A DNA stretch of 64,000 bases, taken from positions 18,094 through 82,093 of the forward strand of contig JBKDUF010000015.1 of assembly GCA_046339595.1 (NCBI GenBank). Reading direction: 5' to 3'. This document shows positions 9,203 to 57,495 of the stretch, in pieces. The notes beneath the pieces were generated by a model that saw only the letters and a program-made list of their open reading frames with translations, made no database searches and was not told the DNA's origin. Made by a program: the position numbers and the translations under genes. Every line of letters begins with the position of its first letter. Position 1 is the stretch's first letter. The stretch comes from Betaproteobacteria bacterium (GTDB taxonomy: Bacteria; Pseudomonadota; Gammaproteobacteria; Burkholderiales; SG8-41).

Positions 9203-9276
9203 GCCCGGGTGACCGAGGCGGTGATCGGTTAAAATGTGGGACTGATTTTTTATATTGTGAACCCACAGGATTACCC

Positions 9277-10118: not shown

Positions 10119-11648
10119 ATGGCGTTTGATGCAAATCGCAGCGACCTGCGCGTGGGGGTCATCGGCACTGGCGCGATGGGGCGCGGCATCGTCCAGGTGT
10201 CCGCTGCCGGCGGCCTCTACGTGACGATGATGGATACCCGCCCGGGTGCGGCGGAGGAGGCCCGCGATTTTGTTGCCAAGATGCTGGCGCGCGCGGCGGA
10301 GAAGGGCAGCATGACCCAGGCCGAGGCCGATGCGGCGGTGTCGCGGATCCGGGTCGCGCAGTCACTGGCCGATTTCAAGGACTGTCACATGGTGGTCGAG
10401 GCCATTGTCGAAAACCTCGACGCCAAGCGCGCCCTGTTTGCCGATCTTGAAGGCAATGTTGCACCGGACTGCATCCTCGCCACCAATACGTCCTCGATGT
10501 CGGTGACCACCATCGCTGCCAAGCTGAAGACCCCGCAGCGATTCGCCGGGCTGCATTTCTTCAACCCGGTACCCTTGATGAAATTGGTCGAGGTCATCGA
10601 CGGCCTGCTCACCGAGAACTGGGTTTCCGAAGCGCTGATGGTGATCGGTAAACGCATGACGCGCGAGCCGGTGCGCCTGACTGATGCGCCGGGCTTCCTG
10701 GTCAACCAGGTCGGCCGCGGCTTCACGCTGGAGGCCTCGCACCTGGTATACGAGGGCGTGGCCTCCTTTGCCGACGTCGACCGCGTGATGCGGGACGTCG
10801 GCGGCTTTCGCATGGGCCCGTTCGAGTTGATGGAACTGACCGGCCTCGACGTGACCCAGCCGGCCTCGGCGCTGATCTACAACCAGTTTTTCCAGGAGCC
10901 GCGCTACCGCCCGAGCACGATCATGCAGGCGCGCTACGAGGCCGGGGTGCTGGGCCGCAAGAGCAAGAAGGGCTTCTACAACTACGATGCTGAAATGAAG
11001 CCGATCGTCGCGCCGGAGCCGCCGGCACCGGCAGCAAAACCGAAAAGCGTCTGGTTGAGCAAGGCAGAACCGGCCGGCCACGATGCGTTGGTTGCGCTGC
11101 TGAACAAGCTCGGCGCCAGCATCGAGAGCAGTGCCCGGCCTTCCGCCGAGGCGCTGATCCTGGTCACTCCGGTGGGCAAGGACGCGACCACCAGCGCGGT
11201 GGAGGAGGGGCTGGACCCGAAACGCACCGTGGCCGTGGACACGCTGTTCCCGATGGTCAAGCGACGCACCATCATGGGCACGCCGCAGACCGATGCGAAG
11301 ATGAAAGAGGCTGCACACGGACTGCTCGCCTCCGACGGCGTGCCGGTGACTGTCTGCCGCGACAGCCCGGGCTTCATCGCCCAGCGCATCGTCGCGATGA
11401 TCGTCAACATCGGCTGCTCGATCGCGCAAAGCCGCACCGCACAGCCCGCCGACATCGACAAGGCGGTGACCCTGGGGCTGAACTACCCCCACGGCCCGCT
11501 GAAATTCGGCGACACCGTCGGCGTTGAGCGCATCCACCGCGTACTCGCCAACATGAATGCGATCTACGCCGATCCGCGTTACCGCCCCACCATCTGGATG
11601 CGCCGCCGTGCGCAGCTGGGCGTGTCGCTGCTGACCCCCGAACCCTGA
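10119..11648 (+). CDS. 3-hydroxyacyl-CoA dehydrogenase (NAD-binding, extended C-terminal domains)
   Basis: It has the N-terminal Rossmann motif VGVIGTGAMGRG and the HFFNPVPLMKLVE block typical of 3-hydroxyacyl/3-hydroxybutyryl-CoA dehydrogenases. Length is 509 aa. Confidence 0.85.
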   Translation: MAFDANRSDLRVGVIGTGAMGRGIVQVSAAGGLYVTMMDTRPGAAEEARDFVAKMLARAAEKGSMTQAEADAAVSRIRVAQSLADFKDCHMVVEAIVENLDAKRALFADLEGNVAPDCILATNTSSMSVTTIAAKLKTPQRFAGLHFFNPVPLMKLVEVIDGLLTENWVSEALMVIGKRMTREPVRLTDAPGFLVNQVGRGFTLEASHLVYEGVASFADVDRVMRDVGGFRMGPFELMELTGLDVTQPASALIYNQFFQEPRYRPSTIMQARYEAGVLGRKSKKGFYNYDAEMKPIVAPEPPAPAAKPKSVWLSKAEPAGHDALVALLNKLGASIESSARPSAEALILVTPVGKDATTSAVEEGLDPKRTVAVDTLFPMVKRRTIMGTPQTDAKMKEAAHGLLASDGVPVTVCRDSPGFIAQRIVAMIVNIGCSIAQSRTAQPADIDKAVTLGLNYPHGPLKFGDTVGVERIHRVLANMNAIYADPRYRPTIWMRRRAQLGVSLLTPEP

Positions 11649-11676
11649 ACGAAACGACCGGATAAAGGAAACCACC

Positions 11677-12879
11677 ATGCTTGACGCCTATCTCTACGAA
11701 GGCCTGCGCACTCCCTTCGGCCGCCATGCCGGCGCGCTGGCCAGGGTCCGCCCCGACGACCTGCTTGCCGATGTCATGAAAACCCTGATGGTGAAATCGA
11801 AATTCAAGGTTGACCAGGTCGAGGATATCGTCGTCGGCTGCGCCAACCAGGGCGGTGAAGACAGCCGCTGCGTCGCCCGTCACGCCGGCCTTGCCGCAGG
11901 TTTCCCGATCGAGATCCCGGGCACCGTCCTGCAGCGGAACTGCGCCAGCGGCCTGGGCGCCATTGCCCACGCCGCGCATTCGATCACCGCCGGCGAGGGC
12001 GATGTGTTCATCGTTGGCGGTGTCGAGAGCATGAGCCGCTCACCGATCGTGATCAGCCGTTCCGAGTCGGCCTACGACCGCGGCATCAAGATGTTCGACA
12101 GCACCATCGGCCCGCGCTTCTCCAATCCCAAGCTCGACAAGCAGTTCGGCAACCACCAGATGCCCCAGACTGCGGACAACATGGCGCGGGAACTGGGCAT
12201 CACGCGCGAGCAGGCCGACACCTTCGCTCTGGCCTCTCAGCAGAAATTCGCCACCGCCAAGGGTGAGGGATTTTTTGCCGGCGAGATCGCCCCGGTGGAA
12301 ATGCCGGCCGGGCGCAAGGGCCCGGTGCCGCCAGTGGCCGAGGACGAGCATCCGCGCCCGGGCACCGACATGGCCGCGCTGGCCAAGATGAAGGTGCTCT
12401 ACGAGGGTGGGGTCACCACCGCCGGCAATGCCTCGGGCGTCAATGACGGCGCGGTGGCACTGGTGTTGGGCTCGCGTGCTGCCGGCGAAAAGGCCGGTGC
12501 CAAGCCGATGGCGCGGGTCATCGCCACTGCTGCGATGGGTGTGCGCCCCGACATCATGGGCTACGGCCCGGTGCCGGCCTCGCAGAAGGCTCTGGCCCGC
12601 GCCGGTCTCAGCATCAAGGACATGGACATCATCGAGATCAACGAAGCCTTCGCCGCACAGGTGCTGGGCTGCCTGAAAGGTCTGGGCGTGTCCTTCGACG
12701 ACTCGCGTGTCAATCCCAATGGCGGCGCGATTGCAGTCGGCCATCCGCTCGGGGCTTCCGGTGCCCGCATCGCGCTGACTGCCGCCCGCCAGCTGCAGCG
12801 TATCGGCGGCAAATATGCCCTGGTGTCGCTGTGCATCGGCGGCGGGCAGGGGCTGGCTGTGGTGCTGGAGCGAGTCTAG
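11677..12879 (+). CDS. Acetyl-CoA C-acyltransferase (thiolase)
   Basis: 400 aa with the nucleophile block NCASGLGA, plus NEAFAAQ, GHPLGASGAR and the C-terminal CIGGGQG. Confidence 0.9.
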   Translation: MLDAYLYEGLRTPFGRHAGALARVRPDDLLADVMKTLMVKSKFKVDQVEDIVVGCANQGGEDSRCVARHAGLAAGFPIEIPGTVLQRNCASGLGAIAHAAHSITAGEGDVFIVGGVESMSRSPIVISRSESAYDRGIKMFDSTIGPRFSNPKLDKQFGNHQMPQTADNMARELGITREQADTFALASQQKFATAKGEGFFAGEIAPVEMPAGRKGPVPPVAEDEHPRPGTDMAALAKMKVLYEGGVTTAGNASGVNDGAVALVLGSRAAGEKAGAKPMARVIATAAMGVRPDIMGYGPVPASQKALARAGLSIKDMDIIEINEAFAAQVLGCLKGLGVSFDDSRVNPNGGAIAVGHPLGASGARIALTAARQLQRIGGKYALVSLCIGGGQGLAVVLERV

Positions 12880-13070
12880 GACTAAAGGCAGAGGGGGGCG
12901 GGCGGCGTCCAGCCCTTCTTCCGGCGATATGATTTTTCCCACTGTTGCGCCGCACAAATTTCGTGTTTAATCAAGTCCGTTGACTGGCAAACTTCTCATT
13001 TTGTTAGATTTGTGTGCCCGCGACAGGCGCGGCAAACTGATGGCCTGCTTCTAACAGGGGCGGCCGGGAG

Positions 13071-13451
13071 ATGCGCTTGAGTGACCAGGAAACAGTTGCG
13101 GCGTTGAAGCGGGGAACACCGTTGACACCGCAGCGATTGATCGAGATGCGCTCTAAGGGCATGCACACCGTGCGCTTCGAGTTCATCGTCCGCCTTCTGC
13201 GTCTCAATACCCAGATCATCACGCTGTCGATCTACTGGGAGGACGGTCGCGAATTCATGCAGGTGCCGACCGTGCAGAATACACAGCGCAAGCTGGTATA
13301 TGCCAGTGAACCGCGTGTTGCGGGACTGTTCGACGACCTGTCGCTGTTGTGCTATCCCCTCGACCCTGATGCGAAAACCAGGGTTGACGCCGAGCTTGAT
13401 CGCATGGTCAAGGCCATCGGCGATTACGACAGTCGCATCGCCGAACCCTAG
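13071..13451 (+). CDS. Hypothetical protein (126 aa, no recognisable motif)
   Basis: This is the only long ORF in a 660-nt gap. It is visibly less GC-rich than its neighbours, and a GGGAG motif lies just upstream of the ATG. I recognise no family. Confidence 0.4.
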   Translation: MRLSDQETVAALKRGTPLTPQRLIEMRSKGMHTVRFEFIVRLLRLNTQIITLSIYWEDGREFMQVPTVQNTQRKLVYASEPRVAGLFDDLSLLCYPLDPDAKTRVDAELDRMVKAIGDYDSRIAEP

Positions 13452-13485
13452 ACTCCAGCCACGCCGCCTGGGCTTGGCAGGCCGG

Positions 13486-13515
13486 TTGCGATGCCTCAGC
13501 AAAATCGCTTATAAT
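13486..13515 (+). promoter_or_regulatory. Putative sigma70 promoter of the tRNA-Gly cluster
   Basis: TTGCGA (13486-13491), an 18-nt spacer, then TATAAT (13510-13515). It lies 24 nt upstream of tRNA-Gly. Confidence 0.45.
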
Positions 13516-13538
13516 CCGCGACCGATCAAGCAGTCCAC

Positions 13539-13614
13539 GCGGGAATAGCTCAGTTGGTAGAGCGCAACCTTGCCAAGGTTGAGGTCGGGAGTTCGAGACT
13601 CCTTTCCCGCTCCA
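13539..13614 (+). tRNA. tRNA-Gly (anticodon GCC)
   Basis: GCGGGAATAGCTCAGTTGGTAGAGC...TTCGAGACT...TTCCCGCTCCA. Acceptor stem GCGGGAA/TTCCCGC, anticodon loop CTTGCCAAG, encoded CCA end. Confidence 0.95.
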
Positions 13615-13621
13615 GATCTCC

Positions 13622-13662
13622 GGGGAAAACGGTTGGATTCCAACCAGCCGTTTTCCCCTTTT
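13622..13662 (+). terminator. Hairpin plus T-run between tRNA-Gly and tRNA-Cys (terminator-like or processing structure)
   Basis: An 11-bp perfect stem ggggaaaacgg/ccgttttcccc (13622-13632 / 13648-13658), with an inner ttgg/ccaa extension, is followed by TTTT. Confidence 0.5.
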
Positions 13663-13671
13663 AGCTGCAGC

Positions 13672-13745
13672 GGCGGGGTGGCAGAGTGGTTATGCAGCGG
13701 CCTGCAAAGCCGTGTACGCCGGTTCGATTCCGACCCCCGCCTCCA
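13672..13745 (+). tRNA. tRNA-Cys (anticodon GCA)
   Basis: GGCGGGGTGGCAGAGTGGTTATGC...CCTGCAAAGCC...GGTTCGATTCCGACCCCCGCCTCCA. Acceptor stem GGCGGGG/CCCCGCC, anticodon GCA. Confidence 0.95.
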
Positions 13746-13812
13746 GTGACGCCCATCCCTCGATACCCGTTCACTCCCGGCAGCCCTTCGCGGTTATGCT
13801 CATGGCTGCCGC

Positions 13813-13897
13813 GGGCGAGTGGTGAAATTGGTAGACACAAGGGACTTAAAATCCCTCGGCGCAAGCCATACCGGTTCGAGTCCGGTCTCGCCCACCA
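13813..13897 (+). tRNA. tRNA-Leu (anticodon TAA), class II with long variable arm
   Basis: GGGCGAGTGGTGAAATTGGTAGACAC...GACTTAAAATCC...GGTTCGAGTCCGGTCTCGCCCACCA. Acceptor stem GGGCGAG/CTCGCCC. Confidence 0.95.
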
Positions 13898-37035: not shown

Positions 37036-40000
37036 TTGTCCATGCTGCATTTCCTCAGACTCCGAGGACGCGACGCCCTCCCGGCATTCCGTCGCAACAA
37101 GCTGCTGCAGGCGGCAGCAATCCCCGGTCTCCAGTTCAGCGCCGAGTATTGGCATTTCATCCGGCTGCGTGAAGCACTGGAGGCGGATGCACGGCGCCAG
37201 CTCGAACGCATCCTCAGTTACGGCCCGGCGTCCTCCACCGTGGTGCAGCAGGGCACGCTGCTGGTGGTCACGCCGCGCCTGGGCACCATTTCGCCATGGT
37301 CATCCAAGGCCACCGACATCGCCAGCCACTGCGGCCTGCCCGCGGTGGAGCGCATCGAGCGCGGTGTGGCCTGGTGGTGCGGTGTTGACGGCAAGCCGCT
37401 GGACGATGCGCAGCGCAAGCGGCTGCTGCCGCTGCTCCATGACCGCATGACCGAATCCGTGCTCGACAGCCTCGATGGCGCCGAAGCCCTGTTCCGGCGC
37501 ATCGAACCGAAGCCGCTGGCTTCGGTGGACATCCTGTCCGGCGGGCGCGAGGCGCTGGCCCGCGCAAACACCACGATGGGGCTGGCCCTGTCGCCCGACG
37601 AGATCGACTACCTGTTCGACAACTTCAAGCGCATCGGGCGCAATCCCACCGATGTCGAGCTGATGATGTTCGCGCAGGCGAATTCGGAACACTGCCGCCA
37701 CAAGATCTTCAATGCCGACTGGATCGTGGATGGTGAAAAGCAGCCGCGTTCGCTGTTCGGCATGATCCGCACCACCCACGAAAAACACCCGCAGGGCACG
37801 GTGGTGGCCTATTCCGACAATTCCTCGGTGATCGAGGGCGCGGAAATCGACCGCTTCCATCCGGGCGAGGGCGGCGCCTACGGCTATCGCCGCGACCTGA
37901 CCCACATCCTGATGAAGGTGGAGACGCATAACCATCCGACGGCGATTTCACCGTTTCCCGGTGCATCCACCGGCGCGGGCGGAGAAATCCGCGACGAGGG
38001 CGCCACCGGCCGCGGCGCCCGGCCGAAAGCCGGCCTTACCGGCTTCTCGGTGTCCAACCTGCGCATTCCCGGCGCCGAGCAGCCGTGGGAAGCGAATCCG
38101 GTGGGCAAACCCGGACGCATAGCCTCGGCGCTGCAGATCATGCTCGACGGGCCCATCGGCGGGGCCTCGTTCAACAACGAATTCGGCCGCCCCAACCTTG
38201 CCGGTTATTTCCGCAGCTACGAGCAGCGCGTCGGCCGCGAGGTGCGCGGCTACCACAAGCCGATCATGATCGCCGGTGGCCTCGGCAACATCGCCGCGCG
38301 CCATGCCGCGAAGCACGGCCTGCCCGAGGGCGCACTGCTGATCCAGCTTGGCGGCCCCGGCATGCTGATCGGGCTTGGCGGCGGCGCCGCCTCCAGCATG
38401 GACACCGGCGCCAACCAGGAAGACCTCGATTTCGACTCGGTGCAGCGCGGCAATCCGGAAATCGAGCGACGCGCGCAGGAAGTCATCGACCGCTGCTGGG
38501 CGCTGGGGGATGCCAATCCGATCCTGTCCATTCATGACGTGGGTGCTGGCGGGCTGTCCAATGCGCTGCCCGAACTGGCGCATTCCGCGCACCGCGGCGC
38601 GCGATTTGAACTGCGTGACGTGCCGAGCGAGGAGCCGGGCATGTCGCCGCTGCAGATCTGGTGCAACGAGGCGCAGGAACGTTACGTGCTGGCGATCGAG
38701 CCCAAGGACCTCACCCGTTTTCGCGCGCTGTGCGAACGCGAGCGCTGTCCCTTTGCCGTCGTCGGCGAGGCCACCGCCGACGGCTTTTTGCGGGTGCATG
38801 ATCGCCTGTTCAACAACAGCCCGGTGGACATGGAAATGGCGGTGCTCCTGGGCAAACCGCCGAAGATGCTGCGTGAGGTCAAGCGCGTGGTGCGCGAGGG
38901 CCAGGTTTTCGATGCCGCGGGCATTGACCTGTGCGAAGCCGCGTACCGCGTGCTGCGCCTGCCGACCGTGGCCGACAAGACCTTCCTCATCAGCATCGGC
39001 GACCGCACGGTCGGCGGCATGACCGCGCGCGACCAGTTCGTCGGTCCCTGGCAGGTTCCGGTGGCCGATGTCGCGGTGACGCTGATGGGGTTCAGCACGT
39101 ATCGCGGCGAAGCCATGGCCATGGGCGAACGCACGCCGCTGGCCGTGCTCAATCCTGCAGCCTCGGGCCGCATGGCAGTGGGCGAGGCCATCACCAACAT
39201 CGCCGCCGCCGCCATCGACAGGCTGGGTGACATCAAGCTGTCTGCGAACTGGATGGCCGCTGCGGGCCATCCCGGCGAGGATGCCGCGCTGTTCGATACC
39301 GTGCACGCGGTCGCAATGGAGCTGTGCCCGCAGCTCGGCATCAGCATTCCGGTGGGCAAGGACAGCCTGTCCATGAAGACCACCTGGACCGAGCAGGGCG
39401 CACGCCGGGAAGTGGTGGCGCCGCTGTCGCTGATCGTTTCGGCCTTTGCACCGGTCAGCGACGCGCGGCGTACGCTGACGCCGCTGCTGCGCGGCGACTG
39501 CGGCGAGACCGATCTGCTGCTGGTGGACCTCGGCCGCGGCCGCAACCGGCTCGGTGCCTCCGCGCTGGCCCAGGTATACGACGCCATCGGCGACCAGGTG
39601 CCCGATCTCGATCATGCCGCCGACCTGAAAAATTTCTTCGGGGCGATCCAGTCGCTCAGCCAGGATGGCCTGCTGCTGGCGTATCACGACCGCTCCGACG
39701 GCGGGCTGCTGGCCACGGTGTGCGAGATGCTGTTTGCCTCGCGCTGCGGAGCGGCGCTCGAACTGCCCGGCGCCGCCGATGCCACAGCGCTGCTGTTCAG
39801 CGAGGAGCTGGGTGCGGTGTTGCAGGTGCGGCGTGGTGACCGCGAGCGGGTTCTGGGGGCGCTTGCGGATGCGGGACTGGCCGCCTGCAGCATGGTGATC
39901 GGCCGCGTTGTGCCGGGCGACCGCCTGCTGATCCAGGCCGGCGGCCGCAGGCTCTTCGACGAATCGCGCATCGATCTGCATCGTGCCTGGTCGGAGACCA

Positions 40001-40917
40001 CCTATCGCCTGCAGCAGTTGCGTGATAACCCGGACTGCGCGCAGCAGGAATTCGACCGCATCCTCGATGCCGGCGACCCCGGCCTTGCGCCGCGGCTGAC
40101 CTTTGATCCTGCCGAGGATGTTGCGGCACCTTTCATTGCCACGGGCGTGCGGCCGCGCATGGCCATCCTGCGCGAGCAGGGGGTCAATGGCCAGATCGAA
40201 ATGGCCGCCGCCTTCGACCGCGCCGGCTTCGCAGCAGTGGAGGTGCACATGAGCGACATCATTGCCGGCCGCGTCAGCCTGCGGGACTTCAAGGGCTTTG
40301 CCGCCTGCGGCGGGTTTTCCTACGGCGACGTGCTGGGTGCCGGCGAGGGCTGGGCCAAGTCCATCCTCTTCAATCCCCGCGCCCGTGACGAGTTCGAAGC
40401 CTTCTTCAAACGCGGCGACAGCTTCGCACTCGGGGTATGCAACGGCTGCCAGATGATGAGCAACCTGCACGAGCTGATTCCCGGTGCGGAACGCTGGCCG
40501 CATTTCGTGCGCAACCGTTCCGAACAGTTCGAGGCGCGTTACGTCACGCTCGAAGTGCAGGATTCGCCCTCGCTGTTTTTCAGTGGCATGGCCGGCAGCC
40601 GCATTCCGGTGGCTGTCGCGCATGGCGAGGGCTACGCGGAATTCCGCGATGGCGCCGCGCTGGCTGCTGCATCGCCGCTGGTGGCGCTGCGTTACGTCGA
40701 CAACCGCGGCAACGCCACCGAAACCTATCCGTTAAACCCCAATGGCTCCCCGCAGGGCATCACCGGACTGACCACGCCCGATGGGCGCTTCACCATCCTG
40801 ATGCCGCATCCGGAGCGGGTGTTTCGCAGCGTGCAGAATTCCTGGCATCCGCAAGGCTGGACAGAAGACGGTCCCTGGCTGCGCATGTTCCGCAATGCGC
40901 GCCGCTGGGTCAAATAA
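37036..40917 (+). CDS. purL: Phosphoribosylformylglycinamidine synthase, single-chain large form
   Basis: 1293 aa. The N-terminus ...[16 protein letters not shown] is like the enterobacterial PurL. It also has [23 protein letters not shown] and a C-terminal glutaminase domain with GVCNGCQMM. The start could be the second Met at 37042. Confidence 0.95.
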
Positions 40918-40932
40918 AATCAATAAAAACAA

Positions 40933-43900
40933 CTAGTTAGAGTTTTCCGCAGGGGCCGGTTGCCAGCGCAGGTCCAGCGTCAGCGGAAATGCAGGATTGG
41001 GCGGCTCCGGCCGGACCGTCATCGGTCCCGGGCTGTGACCGTGATCCCAGAAGCGGGCGATGCGGCGGGCCTCGGCTTCGTTGGCATTGACCGGCAGCGT
41101 CTCGTAATTGCGCCCGCCGGGATGCGCGACATGATAGGTGCAGCCGCCAATCGAGCGTCCGCTCCAGGTATCCACCACATCGAATACCAGTGGCGCGTGC
41201 ACGCCGATGGTCGGGTGCAGTGCCGAGGGCGGATTCCAGGCGCAATAGCGAAGTCCGGCAACAAATTCGCCCGGCGTGCCGGTCGGCGTCAGCGGCAGGG
41301 CACGCCCGTTGCAGGCGATGAGGTGGCGCGTTTCAGCAAGTCCGCGCGCGCGCACCTGCAGGCGTTCGACCGAGGAATCGACATAACGCGCCGTTCCCTG
41401 CAGGCCGACTTCCTCGCCCAGCACATGCCAGGGCTCAATTGCCTGGCGCAGTTCGACTTCGATGCCGTTGTACACAACGGTACCGTAGCGGGGAAAGCGG
41501 AATTCATGGAAGGCTGCATACCAGCTGTCTTCGAAGCCATAGCCCGCGCGGCGCAGGTCGCCCAGCACATCGTGGAAATCGGCGCCGACAAAATGCGGCA
41601 GCATGAAGCGGTCGTGCAGCTGGGTGCCCCAGCGCACCAGTTTTTTTGTGTAGGGTTCGCGCCAGAACCAGGCCACGAGCCCGCGCAGCAGCAGCATCTG
41701 GGCAAGACTCATCCGCGCCTGCGGCGGCATCTCGCCGCCGCGGAACTCAAGCAGGCCCAGCCGTCCGCTGCCGCCGGCCGGGGTGTAGAGCTTGTCGATG
41801 CAGAACTCGGCGCGGTGGGTGTTACCGGTGAGATCGACCAGGAAGTTGCGCAGCAGGCGATCGGTCATCTCCGGCGGCAGGGCAGCTCCGCTGCCGGCCT
41901 GCAGCCGCGCCATTTCCTGGAACGCGATTTCCAGCTCGTAGAGGTTGTCGTCGCGGGCCTCGTCCACCCGCGGTGCCTGGCTGGTCGGACCGATGAACAT
42001 GCCCGAAAAGAGATAGGACATTGAAGGGTGGTTCTGCCAGTAGGTGATCAGGCTGCGCAGCAGGTCGGGACGCCGCAGCAGGGGGCTGTCCGCAGCCGAG
42101 GCACCGCCAAGGGTGATGTGGTTGCCGCCGCCGCTGCCGGTATGGCGGCCGTCGAGCATGAATTTTTCGGTGCCGAGCCGGGCCAGCCGGGCTTCCTCGT
42201 ACAGCGCGGTGGTGTTCGCCGCCAATGATGGCCAATCCTTCGCGGGATGGATGTTGACTTCTATGACACCGGGATCAGGTGTCACGTTGAGCACCGTGAT
42301 GCGCGGATCCTGCGGCGGCGGATAGCCCTCAAGGCGAACCTGAAGCCTGGTCGACTCAGCGGTCTTCTCGATCACCGAGAGCAGCCTGAAGTAGGGATCT
42401 GCGCTTTCAAACGGCGGCATGAACACGTGCAGCCGGCCACTGCGTACTTCGACGCACAAGGCGGTGCGCACCAGCTTGCGGCCATCTTCGATCAGTTCCG
42501 GCAGCAGGTTCAGCGGCAGGCGGTAGCCTGCTGCTGAGTCACCGTTGATGACGATCAGCCGGCCATCGGTCAACGGCCATGGCGTGCTCGTCCACCCATG
42601 CGCATCGGCGCCCAGCGAAAGCACCCAGGCCGCAGGGGTGCCGCCGGGGGCGCGCAGCCGTTTTTCCGCGCTGAGATGGGTCAGGGGATCTTCCCAGGCT
42701 GGCATCAGGACAGCGCCGGTCAGCCCCAGCCTGTCGAGCAGGGCCTCGGCAAAACGCCGGGCATCGGCGGCTTCTGCATCGGACGGTGAACCGGCAGCGG
42801 CGATCAGCGCAGGGTCCTGCCACAACGGAACGCCGTCGTTGCGCCACTGGATGCCAAGGGCCCAGCGCGGCAGCGGCTCACCCGGGTACCACTTGCCCTG
42901 GCCATGGAATACCAGGCCGCCGGGAGCGAAGCGCCTGTGCAGGCGCCAGGCCAGTTCTTCGGCCAGCTGCCATTTCCTGTCGGACAGGGCCGTGGTGTTC
43001 CATTCCGCGCCATCCATGTCGTCTATCGACACGAAAGTCGGCTCGCCGCCCTGTGTCAGGCGCACGTCGCCGGCAGCCAGTTCGGCATCGATGCGATGCC
43101 CCAGCCGGTCCAGGGCCTGCCATTGCGCATCGTCGAAGGGACGCGTCACCCGCGGATCCTCATGGATGCGGGTCAGGTTCATTTCAAACCCGAAAGTCGA
43201 CTCGCAGGGATCGACGCCGCCGCTGACGGGTGCCGCGCTGGCGGCAGACGGTGTGCAGGCCAGGGGGATATGCCCCTCGCCGGCGAGCAGGCCCGAAGTC
43301 GGATCCAGTCCGATCCATCCCGCGCCGGGGATATAGGCTTCGGCCCAGGCATGCAGGTCGGTGAAGTCGCGCTCGCTGCCGGAGGGGCCGTCCAGTGCTT
43401 TCTGGTCGGCCTTGAGCTGGATCAGGTAGCCGGAGACAAACCTTGCCGCCAGCCCGCAGTGGCGCAGGAGCTGGACCAGCAGCCAGCCGCTGTCACGGCA
43501 GGAGCCGCTGCGTTTTTGCAGGGTCTCCTCGCAGCCCTGCACACCGGGCTCCATCCGCACCAGGTAGCCGATGTCCTGCTGCAGGCAGCGGTTGATTTCG
43601 ACCAGGAAGTCGATGGTGCCGATGCCCGGGCGCAGGGATCGGCGGAAACCGTCAAGCCAGGCCCGCAGCAGCGGACCCTGTTCGTCGATGGCCAGGTAGG
43701 GTGTCAGGTCGCGCGCAAGGCCGGGGGCGTAGGTGAAAGGAAAGCTTTGGGCCTCGGCCTCGATGAAAAAATCGAAGGGATTGATCACGGTCATGTCCGC
43801 GACCAGGTCCACGGTGATTTCGAAAGCCGTGGTTTTTTCCGGGAATACGTAACGCGCGATGTAATTGCCGAAAACGTCCTGCTGCCAGTTGATGAAATGC

Positions 43901-44046
43901 TCGCCGGGACTGACCTGAAGCGAATAGGACAGGATCGGCGTGCGGCAGTGAGGCGCGGGGCGCAGCCGGATCTGGTGGGGGGACAGCGAAACGGGCCGGT
44001 CGTAGCGGTAGCTGGTCCGGTGGTGCAGTGCGACGTGGATGCTCAA
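40933..44046 (-). CDS. Large transglutaminase-family protein (Bact_transglu_N + transglutaminase core + DUF2126-like C-terminal region)
   Basis: 1037 aa. The TTG start overlaps the upstream stop (TTGA). N-terminus MSIHVALHHRTSYRYDRP. Catalytic triad candidates are SGSCRDSGW (Cys), DLHAWAEAY (His) and GLDPTSG (Asp). A further ~700 aa follow the core. Confidence 0.85.
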   Translation of the reverse strand: MSIHVALHHRTSYRYDRPVSLSPHQIRLRPAPHCRTPILSYSLQVSPGEHFINWQQDVFGNYIARYVFPEKTTAFEITVDLVADMTVINPFDFFIEAEAQSFPFTYAPGLARDLTPYLAIDEQGPLLRAWLDGFRRSLRPGIGTIDFLVEINRCLQQDIGYLVRMEPGVQGCEETLQKRSGSCRDSGWLLVQLLRHCGLAARFVSGYLIQLKADQKALDGPSGSERDFTDLHAWAEAYIPGAGWIGLDPTSGLLAGEGHIPLACTPSAASAAPVSGGVDPCESTFGFEMNLTRIHEDPRVTRPFDDAQWQALDRLGHRIDAELAAGDVRLTQGGEPTFVSIDDMDGAEWNTTALSDRKWQLAEELAWRLHRRFAPGGLVFHGQGKWYPGEPLPRWALGIQWRNDGVPLWQDPALIAAAGSPSDAEAADARRFAEALLDRLGLTGAVLMPAWEDPLTHLSAEKRLRAPGGTPAAWVLSLGADAHGWTSTPWPLTDGRLIVINGDSAAGYRLPLNLLPELIEDGRKLVRTALCVEVRSGRLHVFMPPFESADPYFRLLSVIEKTAESTRLQVRLEGYPPPQDPRITVLNVTPDPGVIEVNIHPAKDWPSLAANTTALYEEARLARLGTEKFMLDGRHTGSGGGNHITLGGASAADSPLLRRPDLLRSLITYWQNHPSMSYLFSGMFIGPTSQAPRVDEARDDNLYELEIAFQEMARLQAGSGAALPPEMTDRLLRNFLVDLTGNTHRAEFCIDKLYTPAGGSGRLGLLEFRGGEMPPQARMSLAQMLLLRGLVAWFWREPYTKKLVRWGTQLHDRFMLPHFVGADFHDVLGDLRRAGYGFEDSWYAAFHEFRFPRYGTVVYNGIEVELRQAIEPWHVLGEEVGLQGTARYVDSSVERLQVRARGLAETRHLIACNGRALPLTPTGTPGEFVAGLRYCAWNPPSALHPTIGVHAPLVFDVVDTWSGRSIGGCTYHVAHPGGRNYETLPVNANEAEARRIARFWDHGHSPGPMTVRPEPPNPAFPLTLDLRWQPAPAENSN

Positions 44047-44813
44047 GGATATTCGGCGGCGGGGCTCTTCGGGGCCGCGGCGACGTTCCAGTCCGGATTA
44101 GGCAGCTCGCTGAATACCTTGCGCAGACCGGCGCCCCACTGGTTGTGGATCATGGTGAAGTAGGGGTCGTTCTCCATGATGTGGTGCCTGTAGCTGACCC
44201 TGAGGCTGTCCCGCTCGTAGATCAGCAGGTCGATCGGCAGGCCGACCGAGATGTTGGAGCGCATGGTCGAATCGAATGACACCAGCAGGCACTTGGTCGC
44301 CTCAAGAAGGCTGGTGTCGGTCTTGATCACGCGATCGATCACCGGTTTGCCGTACTTGCTTTCACCGATCTGGAAGTAGGGCGTTTCCGGTGTCGACTCG
44401 ATGAAATTGCCCTCGCTGTAGACGTGGAAGAGCCGCGGCGCTTCGCCCTTGATCTGCCCGCCCACGATGAACGAGGCGCTGGAGTCGATGTTGCTCTGCT
44501 GCAGGAAGGGTGCATTGCGGTTGCGCACGTCGCGCAAAGCCTGACCGGTGATGTCGGCAACGTCGTACATCGATTCGGCGCTCATCAGCGTCGTCGGCAG
44601 GTTCTGCCGACGGGCATGCTCCTCGAGCAGCTTGATCGCGCTTTGCGTGATCGACAGGTTGCCGGCGGTGAGCATCACGATGACGCGGTCGCCGGACTTC
44701 TCGAAGATATACATCTTGCGGAAGCTGGCGATGTTGTCGACGCCGGCGTTGGTCCGGGAATCGGAGGCGAACACCATGCCGGCGTCCAGCGCGACAGCTA
44801 CACAGTAGGTCAT
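44043..44813 (-). CDS. Proteasome-beta-like Ntn peptidase of the Anbu type
   Basis: 256 aa. The N-terminus MTYCVAVALDAGMVFASDSRTNAG has Thr directly after the initiator Met, with no propeptide. GDRVIVMLTAGNLSITQ has the proteasome-fold beta-strand pattern. Confidence 0.8.
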   Translation of the reverse strand: MTYCVAVALDAGMVFASDSRTNAGVDNIASFRKMYIFEKSGDRVIVMLTAGNLSITQSAIKLLEEHARRQNLPTTLMSAESMYDVADITGQALRDVRNRNAPFLQQSNIDSSASFIVGGQIKGEAPRLFHVYSEGNFIESTPETPYFQIGESKYGKPVIDRVIKTDTSLLEATKCLLVSFDSTMRSNISVGLPIDLLIYERDSLRVSYRHHIMENDPYFTMIHNQWGAGLRKVFSELPNPDWNVAAAPKSPAAEYP

Positions 44814-44879
44814 GAATCGGTCGTTATGGTTGGATTGGAGCGTGGCGAAGCATAGGGTAACAGCAACGCACTGACAAGT

Positions 44880-45881
44880 TCATGCGACGCCGGCCTTGTC
44901 GTGCTGGCGCGACGCGGGATCTAGGTCGGCGGGCATCAGGAAATGGCTGTTCATTTCATTGTGCAGCTGGTTCAGCTTGTCGAGAAAATCCATCAGGTAC
45001 TCATGCAGTCCGGCGGTCATGATTTTCTCCACCCTGCCGTAATGGAACTGGGCGTGCAGTTCGCCGGCAAGCCGCTCCGGCTCCATGGTGTCGTTGCGGC
45101 AGAGGTCCTGCAGGATTTCATAAATCTCGTTCATGCAGGCATGAAGCGAGCGGGGCAGGTCGGCGCGCAGGATGAGCAGCTCGGCGACCCGACGCGGCGT
45201 GATCTGGTCACGGTAGATGCGGCGAAATGAACTGAGTGCGCTAACCGACCGCAGCAGTGCGCTCCACTGGTAATAGTCGACCGCGCCACCGACATCGGCC
45301 GCACTGGGCAGCAGCAGGTGGTATTTCACGTCGAGCAGCCGCGCCGTATTGTCGGCGCGCTCCATGAAGGTGCCGAGCCGGATGAACTGGTAGGCTTCGT
45401 CGCGCAGCATGGTGCCGAAGGTGACTCCGCGAAACTGGTGCGACTGGACCTTGATCCATTCAAAGAATTCGTTGAGATTGCCCTGCGCCAGCGCCTCCTC
45501 TCCGCGCGAGCGCAGCTCCAGCCACATCGCATTGAGATCCTCGTACATCTCGACAGTGATGATGCCGCGCATGCTGCGGCCGTTCTCGCGTGCCGAGTGC
45601 ATCAGCGAGAAGATGCTGGAGGGATTGCTGCCGTCGAGCAGCATGAAATGCAGCACCTTGTCCACCGCCAGCGGCCCGGGATGACGCTCGTAATAGGTGC
45701 TGGCCAGACCGTTGATGATGAGCGGCAGCGCCCAGGGTTCGGCCCAGGCCTGTGCGCTGTCGGTGATGCGGTAGGGCAGCAGCGACATGCGGTAGGTGAC
45801 GTCGAGCAGGCGCGCCGTGTTCTCCGCGCGCTCGATCTGGCGGGACATCCAGTACAGGTTGTTGGCCTGGCGGCTCAGCAT
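44880..45881 (-). CDS. Alpha-E domain protein (DUF403)
   Basis: 333 aa. N-terminus MLSRQANNLYWMSRQIERAENTARLLDV, with a second internal repeat FMERADNTARLLDVKY. Its ATG overlaps the upstream TGA. Confidence 0.8.
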   Translation of the reverse strand: MLSRQANNLYWMSRQIERAENTARLLDVTYRMSLLPYRITDSAQAWAEPWALPLIINGLASTYYERHPGPLAVDKVLHFMLLDGSNPSSIFSLMHSARENGRSMRGIITVEMYEDLNAMWLELRSRGEEALAQGNLNEFFEWIKVQSHQFRGVTFGTMLRDEAYQFIRLGTFMERADNTARLLDVKYHLLLPSAADVGGAVDYYQWSALLRSVSALSSFRRIYRDQITPRRVAELLILRADLPRSLHACMNEIYEILQDLCRNDTMEPERLAGELHAQFHYGRVEKIMTAGLHEYLMDFLDKLNQLHNEMNSHFLMPADLDPASRQHDKAGVA

Positions 45882-47302
45882 GGGATGTCCTCCAGCACCC
45901 AGGTGTCCTTGGTGCCGCCGCCCTGGGAGGAATTGACCACCAGCGACCCCTCGCGCAAGGCCACCCTGGTCAGCCCGCCGGGCACCAGCGTGACTTCCTT
46001 GCCTGACAGCACGTAGGGGCGCAGATCAACATGGCGGGGCAGGATGTCGGAACCGCAGAACGTGGGGCAGGTGGAAAGTGCAAGCGTCGGCTGGGCAATG
46101 TAGTTGGCCGGATTCTGCTCGATGCGCTTGCGGAATTCCGCGATCTGCTCCCTGGTGGAGGTCGGTCCGACCAGCATGCCGTAGCCGCCTGAACCCTGGA
46201 CCTCTTTGACCACCAGCTCGTCGAGCCTTGCCATCGCATAGGCGCGCTCGTCGGCATTGCCCAGCATATAGGTCGGCACATTGGAAATGACCGGTTTTTC
46301 CCCGAGGTAGAACTCGATCATCTTCGGCACGTAGAGGTAGGTTGACTTGTCGTCGGCAACGCCGGTGCCCGGTGCATTCGCCAGCGTGACGTTGCCTGCA
46401 CGGTAAGCCGAGAAAATTCCGGGCACCCCGAGCACCGAGTCGGGGCGGAAGGCGAGCGGATCAAGGTAATCGTCATCGATGCGCCGGTAGATCACGTCCA
46501 CGCGCTGGGGGCCCGCGGTGGTGCGCATGTAGACCACGTCGTTGGCGACAAACAGGTCCTGGCCCTCGACCAGTTCGACGCCCATCTGCTGGGCGAGAAA
46601 GGCGTGCTCGAAGTAGGCGCTGTTGTAGGCGCCCGGTGTCAGCACTACCACGGTGGGCTGCACGGCACGTTCCGGCGCGCAGGCGATCAGGTTCTCCAGC
46701 AGTACGTCGGTGTAGTGATCGACCGGGGCCACCGGCATGCGTGCGAACAGGTCCGGAAAGAGGCGCATCATCATCTTGCGGTTCTCCAGCATGTAGGAGA
46801 CGCCGGAAGGCGTGCGCAGGTTGTCCTCAAGCACGTAGAACTCGCCCTGGCCGGTCTTCACAATGTCGATGCCGGCGATGTGGACATAAACATCCCCGGG
46901 CACCCGCATGCCCTGCATTTCGGGACGATAGGCGGAATTGCCCGTGATCTGGGTCTCGGGCACGATGCCCGCCTTGATGATTTCCCTGTCGTGGTAGATG
47001 TCCTTGAGGAAAGCATTGAGGGCACGCACGCGCTGGCAGGCCCCGCGGCTGATGATGTCCCAGGCGGCGGGCCGGATGATGCGCGGGATGATGTCGAAGG
47101 GAATCGATCGCTCGGTGCCGCCATCATCGCCGTAAACGGCAAACGTGATGCCCAGACGGGCATACAGCGCATTCGCCTCCCGCTGCTTCTGCGGCAGGAA
47201 GTCAGGCGTTTTTTCGGACAGCCATTGTGAATAGGTCCGGTAATGCGGCCTGATGCCGCCATCCGGATCCTGCATTTCGTTGTAAGGCACTCTGGCGCTC
47301 AT
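45875..47302 (-). CDS. Circularly permuted type-2 ATP-grasp protein (DUF404/DUF407)
   Basis: 475 aa. The blocks ...IPRIIRPAAWD..., EFYVLEDNLRTPSGVSYMLENR, VVLTPGAYNSAYFEHAFLAQQMG and LVVKEVQGSGGYGM match my recollection of this family. Confidence 0.8.
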   Translation of the reverse strand: MSARVPYNEMQDPDGGIRPHYRTYSQWLSEKTPDFLPQKQREANALYARLGITFAVYGDDGGTERSIPFDIIPRIIRPAAWDIISRGACQRVRALNAFLKDIYHDREIIKAGIVPETQITGNSAYRPEMQGMRVPGDVYVHIAGIDIVKTGQGEFYVLEDNLRTPSGVSYMLENRKMMMRLFPDLFARMPVAPVDHYTDVLLENLIACAPERAVQPTVVVLTPGAYNSAYFEHAFLAQQMGVELVEGQDLFVANDVVYMRTTAGPQRVDVIYRRIDDDYLDPLAFRPDSVLGVPGIFSAYRAGNVTLANAPGTGVADDKSTYLYVPKMIEFYLGEKPVISNVPTYMLGNADERAYAMARLDELVVKEVQGSGGYGMLVGPTSTREQIAEFRKRIEQNPANYIAQPTLALSTCPTFCGSDILPRHVDLRPYVLSGKEVTLVPGGLTRVALREGSLVVNSSQGGGTKDTWVLEDIPC

Positions 47303-47562
47303 CGGCTGCTCATGCGGTTGCGGGCTCTCAAAGGCGGAAGTGAACCCCGATACGATAAAGCAATGGATGTGCCATTACTGACCGGGCGGAAAAGGCATCA
47401 TCAGCGGTTTGCCGCACCAAAATGATCTTTGCAGCCCGTTCCGGACACCTTGACGCACCAATTCGGTGCCAGCCGGGCGGTTTTGGGCACCTTGAAGGCG
47501 CATGTCGCATAAAATCAGCGCGCCTCATCACCGGTGCGGTCCACACGCCACAACCACCACGC

Positions 47563-49719
47563 ATGCGAAGTCCACTGCAACTCATTGAAGGCGGGATTGC
47601 CACCCCGGAGAAGCGGCTCAAGAGAACGGGCCAGCGCTTTGCTGCGGAGGAGTGCAAGCTGTTTGAGGCGGCCCTGGCTGCCAACATGCAGTCCGGACAG
47701 GGGGATTTGGAGCATCTTGCCGGCTTGATCGAGCTGCTGGCGCTGCTTGACCTTGACCATGAATGCGCCACCGCCACGCTGCTGGTGCCTTTGCTGCGCG
47801 AATCATTGATTGACGCCACCATCCTGCGCCAGCGGTTTGGCTCGCGCGTCGCGGAACTCGCTGAGGGCGTGCTGCGCATGGATCAGATCGGCGCGCTGTC
47901 GGCCAGGGGCGCGGCGCCGGCAGCGGCACCGGGGCAGGGTGCTCAACTGGAAACCCTGCGCAAGATGCTGCTGGCGATGGTGCAGGACGTACGGGTGGTC
48001 CTGATCAAGCTGGCAGACCATCTTTGCCAGCTGCGTGCATCACTGCGAAAAGACAGCGAGTCCCGGCGCCACGAACTGGCCCTGCTGACCCGCGACGTGT
48101 TCGCGCCCCTGGCCAACCGCCTCGGCGTCTGGCAGCTGAAATGGGAGCTTGAGGATCTGGCCCTGCGCATACTCGAGCCCGAAACCTATAAGCGCATCGC
48201 CCGTCTGCTTGACGAGAAGCGGCAGGATCGCGAGCGCTATATCGAAAACGTCGTGGCCCTGCTGAAGGGTGAACTCGCGCGTTCAGGAATCATCGCCGAG
48301 GTCAGCGGCCGGCCAAAACACATTGCGAGCATACATCGCAAGATGCAGACCAAGGGCCTTGATTTCCAGGGACTGTACGACGTCCGCGCCGTCAGGGTTC
48401 TTGTCCGTGACGTGAAGGACTGTTACGCCGCACTTGGACTGGTTCATGCGCTGTGGTCGCCCCTGCCAAAAGAATTCGACGACTACATCGCCAAGCCCAA
48501 GACCAACAACTATCGCTCACTGCACTCTGCAGTCATCGGCCCCGAGGGCAAGTCGCTTGAGGTGCAGATCCGCACCCACGAAATGCATGAGCATTCCGAG
48601 CGCGGTGTCGCAGCGCACTGGCATTACAAGGAAGGCGGACGGGTCGAGCGCGGTTACCGTGAAAAGATCGCCTGGTTGCGCCAGGTGCTGGAGTGGAAGG
48701 ACGAAATCAGCGATGCCAGAGAACTGGCGGAGCAGTTCCGCATCGGCCTGTTTGACGATTCGGTCTATGTGCTGACCCCGCAGGGCAGGGTGGTCGATCT
48801 GCCCAAGGGGGCCACTCCGGTGGATTTTGCCTACCATGTGCACACCGAGCTCGGGCACCGCTGCCGGGGCGCCAAGGTTGACGGTGTGATGGTGCCGCTG
48901 AATACCGCCCTCGCCAATGGCCAGCAGGTTGAAATACTGGCGGCGAAACAGGGCGGGCCGAGCCGTGACTGGCTCAATCCGCAACTGGGATTTCTCAAGA
49001 GCGCCGGCGCCCGCGCCAAGGTTCGACAGTGGTTCAACCGGCTGAATCTTGAGGCGGACATTGCCCAGGGGCGGACACTGCTGGAGCGGGAACTGCAGCG
49101 TCATGGACAGACCCTGATCAAACTGGACCAGCTGGCTGCCAGCCTCGGTTTCGAGCGGCTGCCTGATTTTCTTGCCGCGATTGCGCGCGGCGAACTCGGC
49201 CCCAAGGCTTTGCAGGATGCCCTGGCCGGCGAGCCGCCGCCCCCCGAACCTTCACCGGCCATCATCGCCAGAAAACCAAAAGCCGCCGGAGGGGGGGTGC
49301 TGGTTGTAGGCGTCGACAAGCTGTTGACCGCGCCGGCGAAATGCTGTCGCCCGGCGCCGCCGGAGCCGATCGTCGGCTTCGTGACCCGTGGGCGCGGCGT
49401 CAGCGTGCATCGCGCCGATTGCGCAAGCCTTGCAAGGCTTGATCCGGAGCGCCGGATTGCCGCCGAGTGGGGCGAGCCGGGCTCAGCCACCTTCCCGGTC
49501 GACATCGTGGTCGATGCCGCCGACCGCACCGGATTGCTGCGCGACATATCCGAAGTACTGTCCCGCGAGCGCATCAACGTCTCCGCGACGAGAACCCAAA
49601 GCAGCGATCTGAGCGCGCGCATGCGCTTCACGCTGGAGGTAGCCAATCTGGGACAGTTGCAGCGGGCGCTGGCGCTGATCCGGGAGGTCCGGGGGGTCGT
49701 CAGCGCCGAGCGCCGCTGA
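47563..49719 (+). CDS. relA: GTP pyrophosphokinase (RelA-type long RSH, degenerate hydrolase domain)
   Basis: Taken from ORF 47422..49719, with the start moved to the ATG at 47563. The synthetase block is YRSLHSAVIGPEGKSLEVQIRTHEMH. A TGS domain (VYVLTPQGRVVDLPKGATPVDFAYHVHTELG) and a C-terminal ACT domain are present. The HD motif position reads LLVPLL rather than HD, which argues for RelA rather than SpoT. Confidence 0.85.
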   Translation: MRSPLQLIEGGIATPEKRLKRTGQRFAAEECKLFEAALAANMQSGQGDLEHLAGLIELLALLDLDHECATATLLVPLLRESLIDATILRQRFGSRVAELAEGVLRMDQIGALSARGAAPAAAPGQGAQLETLRKMLLAMVQDVRVVLIKLADHLCQLRASLRKDSESRRHELALLTRDVFAPLANRLGVWQLKWELEDLALRILEPETYKRIARLLDEKRQDRERYIENVVALLKGELARSGIIAEVSGRPKHIASIHRKMQTKGLDFQGLYDVRAVRVLVRDVKDCYAALGLVHALWSPLPKEFDDYIAKPKTNNYRSLHSAVIGPEGKSLEVQIRTHEMHEHSERGVAAHWHYKEGGRVERGYREKIAWLRQVLEWKDEISDARELAEQFRIGLFDDSVYVLTPQGRVVDLPKGATPVDFAYHVHTELGHRCRGAKVDGVMVPLNTALANGQQVEILAAKQGGPSRDWLNPQLGFLKSAGARAKVRQWFNRLNLEADIAQGRTLLERELQRHGQTLIKLDQLAASLGFERLPDFLAAIARGELGPKALQDALAGEPPPPEPSPAIIARKPKAAGGGVLVVGVDKLLTAPAKCCRPAPPEPIVGFVTRGRGVSVHRADCASLARLDPERRIAAEWGEPGSATFPVDIVVDAADRTGLLRDISEVLSRERINVSATRTQSSDLSARMRFTLEVANLGQLQRALALIREVRGVVSAERR

Positions 49720-49778: not shown

Positions 49779-49855
49779 AGGCGCGTAGCTCAGCTGGTTA
49801 GAGCACCACCTTGACATGGTGGGGGTCGTTGGTTCGAGTCCAATCGCGCCTACCA
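49779..49855 (+). tRNA. tRNA-Val (anticodon GAC)
   Basis: AGGCGCGTAGCTCAGCTGGTTAGAGC...CCTTGACATGG...GGTTCGAGTCCAATCGCGCCTACCA. Acceptor stem AGGCGCG/CGCGCCT. Confidence 0.95.

Positions 49856-57418: not shown

Positions 57419-57495
<77 letters not shown>

Follow-up and report, generated by a model that had tools for sequence, protein, structure and literature searches.

A giant transglutaminase-DUF2126 protein beside Anbu in a conserved betaproteobacterial operon

Identity and conservation of the operon

We analyzed a 64-kb stretch of DNA from an uncultured betaproteobacterium assembled from metagenomic data (contig JBKDUF010000015.1 of assembly GCA_046339595.1; the whole stretch is referred to here as the window) whose minus strand carries, at positions 40933-47302, four co-directional genes for an ATP-grasp ligase, an alpha-E protein, the proteasome-like N-terminal nucleophile (Ntn) hydrolase Anbu and a 1037-residue protein, here called the giant, that joins a transglutaminase module to a DUF2126 region. 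On balance, we favor the reading that this locus represents an Anbu-operon variant, passed on vertically, in which the giant replaces the small transglutaminase, and which is controlled by nitrogen and acts on amide or isopeptide bonds. The identification of the locus, comprising the identity of its proteins and the conservation of its arrangement, we regard as nearly certain.

The four open reading frames (ORFs) lie exactly where a first-pass annotation of the DNA had placed them, and the tight packing and start/stop overlaps that it described were found in the sequence. The first gene (45875..47302) encodes a circularly permuted type-2 ATP-grasp ligase of 475 residues (Pfam CP_ATPgrasp_2, E 5.5e-167), whose stop overlaps the start of the second gene as ATGCTGA, the ATG of the latter lying inside the overlap. 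The second gene (44880..45881) specifies the 333-residue alpha-E protein (Pfam Alpha-E, E 5.4e-95) and is separated by only 66 nt from the third (44043..44813), which encodes the 256-residue Anbu. The Anbu stop overlaps the TTG start of the giant's gene (40933..44046) as TTGA, and through this overlap the giant is predicted to be translationally coupled to Anbu; the TTG start lines up with Met1 of 31 homologues. Sequence details such as these ORFs, overlaps, domains and catalytic residues cannot stem from chance. An identical Anbu protein and the same gene order occur on five more metagenomic contigs, and no second ATP-grasp, alpha-E or transglutaminase gene was found elsewhere in the window.

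Pfam profile and PDB searches supported the domain calls of the first-pass annotation for all four proteins. Specific NCBIfam models are lacking for the ATP-grasp, the alpha-E protein and the giant. The ATP-grasp has a near-full-length solved relative in PDB 3N6X (E 5e-221), and for the alpha-E protein no solved relative was found. Anbu matched the Pfam Proteasome family weakly (6.7e-7) and the solved Anbu proteins 5LOY, 5NYW, 5NYJ, 5NYF and 5LOX with E values from 7.6e-101 to 7e-77 over residues 2-242. Its N-terminus, MTYCVAV, has the threonine right after Met1, and T2, D18 and K33 were invariant in an alignment of 12 homologues; the roles of Thr1, Asp17 and Lys32/33 in Anbu are given in PMC6376114. 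Removal of Met alone would expose the Thr nucleophile, with no propeptide involved. In the giant, Pfam identified Bact_transglu_N (1.9e-28), Transglut_core (2.1e-14; residues 148-249, at 43300..43605 on the minus strand) and DUF2126 (E 0, 1188 bits). The Cys-His-Asp core noted in the first-pass annotation is present as SGSCRD (Cys183, at 43498-43500), DLHAW (His232) and GLDPTSG (Asp248), all three residues being invariant in 32 sequences. Both domains of the small operon transglutaminase recur in the first ~280 residues of the giant, and this N-terminal part matched 3ISR, a transglutaminase-like cysteine protease of Cytophaga hutchinsonii, both by fold (E 2.8e-9) and by profile (E 3.3e-6).

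The 3N6X entry is itself an uncharacterized structural-genomics structure, deposited as 'putative glutathionylspermidine synthase', and no published function for it was found in the searches made; it is a ready template for analysis of the substrate pocket.

Conservation of the arrangement was assessed by a census of Anbu loci. When every GTDB species, represented by a single genome, was scanned with an alignment of Anbu proteins, at least 592 Anbu-encoding stretches were recovered; the best 80 of these (53-95% identity) were taken with 10-kb flanks and, together with the window's own contig, classified by tblastn with the window proteins followed by rules. The sample of 81 loci is biased to relatives of the window's Anbu, so that the counts describe these relatives rather than shares among all Anbu genes. 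The window's order (ATP-grasp, alpha-E, Anbu, giant) was found in 35 loci, another five have Anbu followed by the giant with the upstream part unconfirmed, and in two the contig ends just past the giant's start. The giant lies upstream in four (giant, ATP-grasp, alpha-E, Anbu; or giant, Anbu), the canonical order with a small transglutaminase directly 5' of Anbu occurs in 14, six have ATP-grasp, alpha-E and Anbu without a transglutaminase just downstream, 10 have Anbu alone, and five are on contigs too short to classify. Carriers of the window's order include Casimicrobiaceae, Rhodocyclales (Sulfuritalea, Propionivibrio, Azovibrio), Gallionellaceae, Nitrosomonadales, Comamonadaceae and some Nitrospira metagenome-assembled genomes (MAGs).

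Across loci the distance from the Anbu stop to the giant's start is usually -4 to +60 nt. Moreover, the same-order loci form one clade both in the neighbor-joining tree of Anbu and in that of the giant's DUF2126 region, and therefore the arrangement arose once and was then inherited. Taken with the conserved order and tight spacing, the matching trees indicate an arrangement that is old, inherited and under selection. The four-gene arrangement is thus a common inherited form in betaproteobacteria and no one-off of this genome. The first-pass annotation had read the locus as a merger of two clusters. The hybrid anatomy that it inferred is real, as the ATP-grasp/alpha-E pair belongs with those of Anbu operons and the giant with the DUF2126/Rv2566 type, whereas the rarity that it implied does not hold, given that 35 of the 81 loci share the arrangement. 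Among its nearest relatives, then, this exact arrangement is common, but it comes with no biochemically defined function.

The experimental papers on Anbu describe one gene order only, namely ATP-grasp, alpha-E, transglutaminase, Anbu (PMC6376114). Examples of this canonical operon are PP_2688-2685 of Pseudomonas putida and those of Yersinia bercovieri, Pseudomonas aeruginosa and Ralstonia (L087). The window shares with it orthologous ATP-grasp (61-70% identity; 66% for Ralstonia), alpha-E (39-54%) and Anbu (53-60%) proteins, co-directional tight packing with ATP-grasp and alpha-E genes immediately 5' of the other genes on the same strand, a Bact_transglu_N plus Cys-His-Asp module, and sigma-54/NtrC-type signals upstream. 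In contrast to the canonical operon, which has a ~280-residue transglutaminase between alpha-E and Anbu, the window has none at that position; its transglutaminase module is instead the N-terminus of the giant that follows Anbu, where it is fused to a region resembling a glutamine synthetase (GS)-like ligase.

The other relevant comparison is with the stand-alone DUF2126 cluster, which the first-pass annotation described correctly as a separate set of three genes: in Ralstonia (L090) and Granulicella (L092) it consists of the giant, a fused ATP-grasp/alpha-E protein of ~850 residues and a small transglutaminase, and in Ralstonia it lies at a different site from the canonical Anbu operon. We take Rv2566-Rv2569c of Mycobacterium tuberculosis to be a cluster of this type. 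The window resembles such clusters in the architecture of its giant, with 46-56% identity in the DUF2126 region. It differs from them in that its ATP-grasp shares no more than 32-37% identity with the corresponding half of the fused protein, in having Anbu with separate ATP-grasp and alpha-E proteins of the Anbu-operon type, and in lacking the fused protein and the downstream small transglutaminase, with purL converging right after the giant.

Joined forms of the two clusters exist. A Comamonadaceae MAG (L046) and an Azovibrio MAG (L062) have Pfam-confirmed six-gene rows in the order ATP-grasp, alpha-E, Anbu, giant, fused ATP-grasp/alpha-E, small transglutaminase. At three loci (L063, L052, L053) the DUF2126 cluster lies directly 5' of ATP-grasp, alpha-E and Anbu, and the giant adjoins Anbu in several further permutations (L037, L041, L051, L089). 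The six-gene rows, like a plasmid array described below (L091), start with ATP-grasp, alpha-E, Anbu (missing from the plasmid) and giant in the window's order; unlike the window they keep the fused protein and the small transglutaminase after the giant, and the Anbu and giant sequences of such arrays fall outside the window's clade. The window locus is a reduced four-gene form of which the giant is the sole transglutaminase-bearing component. That the Anbu and DUF2126 clusters have repeatedly been joined in different permutations argues for one functional network.

An opposing explanation is that Anbu and the giant are mere neighbors, the giant working alone or with a distant fused ATP-grasp/alpha-E protein. 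The giant is indeed widespread without Anbu (Ralstonia, Granulicella, an Enterobacter plasmid, and a DUF2126 family of 5515 representative clusters at E<=0.001), and the two clusters of Ralstonia sit apart. However, ~40 species have kept the two genes side by side, their stop and start codons overlapping or nearly so, the tree of Anbu parallels that of the giant, the small transglutaminase is absent exactly where the giant is present, and the giant stays beside Anbu across the permutations noted above. We therefore consider mere adjacency highly improbable.

Several other arrangements were observed among related loci. On a 90-kb IncFII plasmid of a clinical isolate of Enterobacter roggenkampii (L091; NZ_CP116251.1, 3709-12900), five genes without Anbu lie beside arsC in the order ATP-grasp, alpha-E, giant, fused ATP-grasp/alpha-E, transglutaminase, and so the module can travel on mobile DNA. 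A megaplasmid of Acidithiobacillus caldus ATCC 51756 (L089; NZ_CP005987.1, 1645-16237) has the order Anbu, giant, ATP-grasp, alpha-E, located a few kb from ntrC-glnL amid IS5 and IS256 elements. Its giant is apparently split into a transglutaminase part (8803-9621) and a DUF2126 part (11121-13574) with an unannotated stretch between them, and a second Anbu copy (L089:4368-5087) is annotated there as hypothetical. Second Anbu paralogues, ~40% identical, also lie directly 5' of ATP-grasp in Nitrosomonadales/betaproteobacterial MAGs (L054:2039-2773 and L056:5888-6643), giving the order Anbu2, ATP-grasp, alpha-E, Anbu, giant. At two loci (L029:2000-9000 and L015:7500-14100) pieces of the giant and ATP-grasp genes, in L029 also inverted, lie fragmented near an intact Anbu, which reflects either decay of the operon or frameshift errors of long-read MAG assemblies.

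Predicted nitrogen control and the relA neighbor

Upstream of the operon, the operon strand carries TGGCACatccaTTGCT at 47374..47359; the window contains no other perfect sigma-54 core (0.12 expected). This element is a predicted -24/-12 promoter (47359..47374, minus strand) located 72 nt 5' of the ATP-grasp ATG. A further 81 nt upstream of this promoter, GCACCaattcGGTGC at 47455-47469 is the core of the NtrC consensus palindrome (GCACC-N5-GGTGC) and a putative enhancer site. A second NtrC-like half-palindrome at 47487..47501 is weaker, with one mismatch, and alone could be a chance match; no strand was assigned to either site.

Comparable elements were found at related loci when the 52 with enough upstream sequence were surveyed, allowing at most one mismatch to the consensus. 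A GG-N10-GC sigma-54 element was present at -41 to -90 in 31 of them, where ~0.003 per site would be expected (background within these loci 0.049/kb), and an NtrC-type palindrome in 32, mostly at -100 to -210, against an expected ~0.024 per site (background within these loci 0.16/kb). The canonical operon of P. putida has a matching expression record. PP_2685-2688 are among the gene sets most strongly induced by nitrogen limitation (PMC3235984, note added in proof), PP_2686-2688 were again induced by nitrogen limitation in a study that assigned all four genes to NtrB/NtrC (PMC7801951), and PP_2685 and PP_2688 were responsive when the nitrogen source was a poor one (PMC8050072). In addition, COG3484, the family of Anbu, is listed in a survey of the sigma-54 regulon (PMC12316311). 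The signals in the window match this published NtrC-dependent induction, and control of the operon by sigma-54 and NtrC, as predicted from its upstream motifs, appears likely. The whole operon would then be expressed as one transcript from the sigma-54 promoter once NtrC had been activated by nitrogen limitation.

Two weaker kinds of match were set aside. Another perfect NtrC-like palindrome at 1133-1147 lies inside a 555-residue ORF and is probably there by chance. Within the operon, one sigma-70-like match in the gap between alpha-E and Anbu and five terminator-like matches give no evidence of an internal promoter or terminator, because both counts equal the expectation from shuffled sequence.

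The first-pass annotation had suggested a starvation or stringent-response link on account of relA, which is on the plus strand and divergent from the operon. The gene (RelA_SpoT, HD_4, TGS and ACT domains) is separated from the ATP-grasp gene by the 260-bp spacer that had been described, provided that it starts at ATG 47563. This start (718 residues) fits the Pfam HD_4 coverage best; the ORF can be extended to an in-frame ATG at 47422 (765 residues), which would cover the NtrC-like sites and leave the sigma-54 promoter at 47359-47374 outside, and on sister contigs gene callers gave relA as 664 or 716 residues. An 81-residue minus-strand ORF at 47515..47760 reported by one gene caller overlaps the 5' part of relA with either start and was treated as spurious, because Pfam coverage of the HD domain requires relA to start at 47563 or 47422.

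A functional tie of the operon to relA and the stringent response through a common divergent control region was weighed in this context. Besides the window, relA adjoins the operon at two other loci (L007 and L048), and NtrC of Escherichia coli is reported to activate relA transcription when cells are starved of nitrogen (Brown et al. 2014, cited by PMC7801951), so that an NtrC site common to relA and the operon is conceivable. Nevertheless, relA is adjacent in just three of the 35 same-arrangement loci, that is, in the window's species, L007 and L048, lying 3 kb off in a further one (L023), and clustering of the flanking ORFs of the 35 loci identified no conserved flanking gene. No sigma-54 element facing relA was found in the spacer between it and the operon. 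Furthermore, the NtrC-dependent genes of the canonical Anbu operon were expressed more strongly in a P. putida relA/spoT mutant (PMC7801951). The stringent-response link thus does not hold up, and we judge a functional tie to relA very unlikely. The broader suggestion of starvation control survives in altered form: since the conserved signals are of the sigma-54/NtrC type, a starvation link is plausible for nitrogen rather than for (p)ppGpp. For the same reason, nitrogen limitation is the condition under which products or adducts of the operon should be sought.

Possible chemistry of the four proteins

The DUF2126 region of the giant (residues 280-1037; 40936..43209, minus strand) is described in Pfam as a putative amidoligase. 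Rv2566-type proteins have been placed in the carboxylate-amine ligase superfamily with GCS2 and the Pup ligase PafA (PMC2588565). A model of the full-length giant (pLDDT 67) gave weak matches to glutamine synthetases and to YbdK/GCS2 (1TT4, probability 0.82). When residues 280-1037 were modeled on their own (pLDDT 74, pTM 0.79), all 50 of the 50 best PDB fold matches were members of the glutamine-synthetase family (probability <=0.96), including GS, gamma-glutamylmethylamide synthetase and 1-naphthylamine GS. A GS-type fold agrees with the published superfamily assignment (PMC2588565). These models weakly suggest that the region is a GS-like carboxylate-amine ligase, the relation being visible at the fold or profile level only.

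Residues invariant among 57 homologues of the DUF2126 region include E335 (GGEPTF), E596 (IEVN), H635, GGGNH643, R745 and E747 (HRAEF), and E767, R769 and E772 (LEFRxxE). The E-x-R motif of glutamine synthetase binds an ATP phosphate, and the LEFR..E stretch of the giant may be its counterpart, as judged by comparing motifs rather than superposed structures. The window giant is a short form, in which two variable linkers that follow residues ~465 and 522 lack ~60 residues between them, a feature common to it and its closest relatives. Members of the family occur both fused to a transglutaminase (~1000-1160 residues) and alone (~700-770 residues). Some giants in GenBank are misnamed 'IMP dehydrogenase', a propagated error (P0160; CJO94_21270 of CP023017.1, L090:6110-9556).

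In all, the operon encodes two ATP-dependent amide-ligase folds (ATP-grasp and, as modeled, GS-like), a Cys-His-Asp acyl-transferase/peptidase domain, a Thr-Ntn hydrolase and an alpha-E protein, all of them co-inherited and with their conserved catalytic residues intact. The four proteins may form a single pathway that targets amide or isopeptide bonds in a peptide or protein, although our certainty in this is low. Using ATP, both the ATP-grasp/alpha-E pair and the GS-like domain would activate a carboxylate for ligation to an amine, and so may build or attach a non-ribosomal peptide or a gamma-glutamyl tag. Handling of this tag (deamidation, transfer or trimming) would fall to the Cys-His-Asp domain and hydrolysis of the tagged product to Anbu, so that overall peptides or proteins would be turned over under regulation and their nitrogen recycled. 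Because the Anbu clade of the window has swapped the small transglutaminase for a fusion with a GS-like ligase, ligase chemistry would belong to Anbu's pathway. Such tag-and-turnover is put forward tentatively, as one possible mechanism. If true, tag-and-degrade would be a third bacterial protein-tagging route beside pupylation and ssrA tagging.

The components themselves have been grouped before. Iyer, Abhiman, Burroughs and Aravind reportedly predicted in 2009 (Mol Biosyst 5:1636) a widely distributed peptide-tagging system. Its components are said to be an ATP-grasp and a GS-like ligase, both circularly permuted, together with a peptidase of the NTN-hydrolase type and an alpha-helical domain that was then novel. 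The window operon encodes all four components of that set. This set together with the census therefore assigns the locus to a known, biochemically uncharacterized system. The locus does not amount to a novel kind of system; it adds context, in the form of a giant-linked clade, intermediates with joined clusters and sigma-54/NtrC signals that are conserved. The triad of ATP-grasp, alpha-E and transglutaminase is among the most widespread uncharacterized gene sets of bacteria. Structures of Anbu have been available since 2017 and the question of its substrate is long-standing; the locus sharpens that question rather than solves it.

Several observations weigh against our favored reading of the locus as a nitrogen-controlled Anbu-operon variant acting on amide or isopeptide bonds. 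Purified Anbu cut none of the standard proteasome substrates and stable complexes among Anbu-operon proteins were not detected (PMC6376114, PMC5666114). As the first-pass annotation had stated, the literature establishes no substrate: neither substrate, product nor phenotype has been reported for any Anbu operon (PMC6376114, PMC5666114, PMC8665760), and our literature search found no newer functional work on Anbu, DUF2126, Rv2566 or Rv2567. The evidence for a GS fold in DUF2126, while uniform, is weak (best E 5e-3, TM ~0.27), and a profile search of PDB sequences and a Pfam scan (E<=10) did not detect a relation to GS, GCS2 or the Pup ligase. No AAA+ unfoldase or small Pup-like ORF was found in or beside the operon. 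As for regulation, the sigma-54 element was present in 19 of 33 giant-type and four of 11 canonical loci, thus not in all, and in six of six others. In favor of the reading, by contrast, the ATP-grasp of the Y. bercovieri Anbu operon frees phosphate from ATP (PMC6376114). Rv2567 and Rv2411c tested negative for GABA-trehalose synthesis (2026 preprint).

Some of this evidence bears on a different chemistry, in which no protein is tagged and the operon scavenges nitrogen from small molecules. In the manner of PuuA, GmaS or arylamine GS, the GS-like domain and the ATP-grasp would attach a gamma-glutamyl or other acyl group to a free amine or a short peptide, and the transglutaminase-like domain and Anbu would act as amidohydrolases that set ammonia or amino acids free. 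Such a role for Anbu is in line with the cleavage of gamma-glutamyl amides by certain Ntn hydrolases, gamma-glutamyltranspeptidase among them. The presence of gamma-glutamylmethylamide synthetase and 1-naphthylamine GS beside ordinary GS among the DUF2126 fold matches favors it, as do the inactivity of Anbu on proteasome substrates (PMC6376114) and sigma-54/NtrC control, which is typical of nitrogen-scavenging operons. The P. putida operon is co-induced with genes for urea and nitrate uptake (PMC7801951, PMC8050072), and across marine metagenomes urea-metabolism domains correlate in abundance with ATP-grasp, alpha-E and Bact_transglu_N domains (PMC3597751). Against scavenging, no conserved transporter or binding protein adjoins the operon, and two ligases plus two hydrolase-type domains exceed the known machinery of gamma-glutamylation. 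Moreover, solved Anbu proteins form proteasome-like split-ring or helical oligomers with a putative S1 pocket (PMC6376114, PMC8665760), and such large assemblies suit polypeptides. Scavenging fits the regulation and the fold matches equally well as tagging does and the Anbu oligomer less well; we regard it as a serious but minority possibility.

The same ligases could instead be synthetases of a non-ribosomal peptide metabolite or polymer for storage or signaling, with the transglutaminase and Anbu serving as peptidases that process or degrade it. ATP-grasp and GS-like ligases are established formers of peptide bonds, and Iyer et al. read neighborhoods of this kind as systems for peptide synthesis or modification (PMC2588565). 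Yet to make a nitrogen-containing product under nitrogen limitation would be counter-intuitive, no conserved export, immunity or precursor gene lies nearby, and the defense models gave zero matches. A peptide product of this sort is in our estimate unlikely.

Returning to tag-and-turnover, its most specific form would make the giant-linked Anbu clade a Gram-negative counterpart of pupylation that is induced by nitrogen starvation and does without a ribosomally made tag. On the target or tag, the transglutaminase domain would either deamidate a Gln or create a thioester, and the fused GS-like domain would phosphorylate the gamma-carboxylate so produced and ligate it, much as PafA follows Dop. 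The short non-ribosomal tag would come from the ATP-grasp/alpha-E pair, and Anbu would be the dedicated hydrolase of the tagged proteins. The likeness is one of possible mechanism: both systems would pair a ligase of the GS/GCS2/PafA superfamily with a Thr hydrolase of the proteasome family, and beside the ligase each would have a deamidase-capable enzyme, Dop in the Pup system and the transglutaminase-type Cys-His-Asp domain in the window. Unlike the Pup-proteasome system, however, the window operon has no Pup-like small ORF, AAA+ ATPase or alpha subunit, Anbu forms open split rings without demonstrated protease activity, and the DUF2126 family is distinct from PafA and Dop. We think this version improbable. 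If true, it would supply the long-sought class of substrates for Anbu.

Other features of the window

The G+C content of the operon (0.62-0.66) matches that of its surroundings, and horizontal transfer was rejected on that ground; a role in anti-phage defense was likewise rejected after PADLOC returned zero matches. Downstream, purL is convergent with the operon and lies 15 bp past the giant's stop. An 891-residue ORF without a Pfam match (37948-40623, minus strand) runs antisense inside purL and is spurious, of a kind typical of GC-rich DNA; antisense ORFs like it dominated naive clustering of flanking ORFs. An Rfam scan of the window identified tRNAs only, other families being below threshold. 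A tRNA-Val(GAC) gene (49779-49855) lies between relA and thrS, a cluster of tRNA-Gly, tRNA-Cys and tRNA-Leu genes is at 13539-13897, and a tRNA-Pro(GGG) gene is at 57419-57495.

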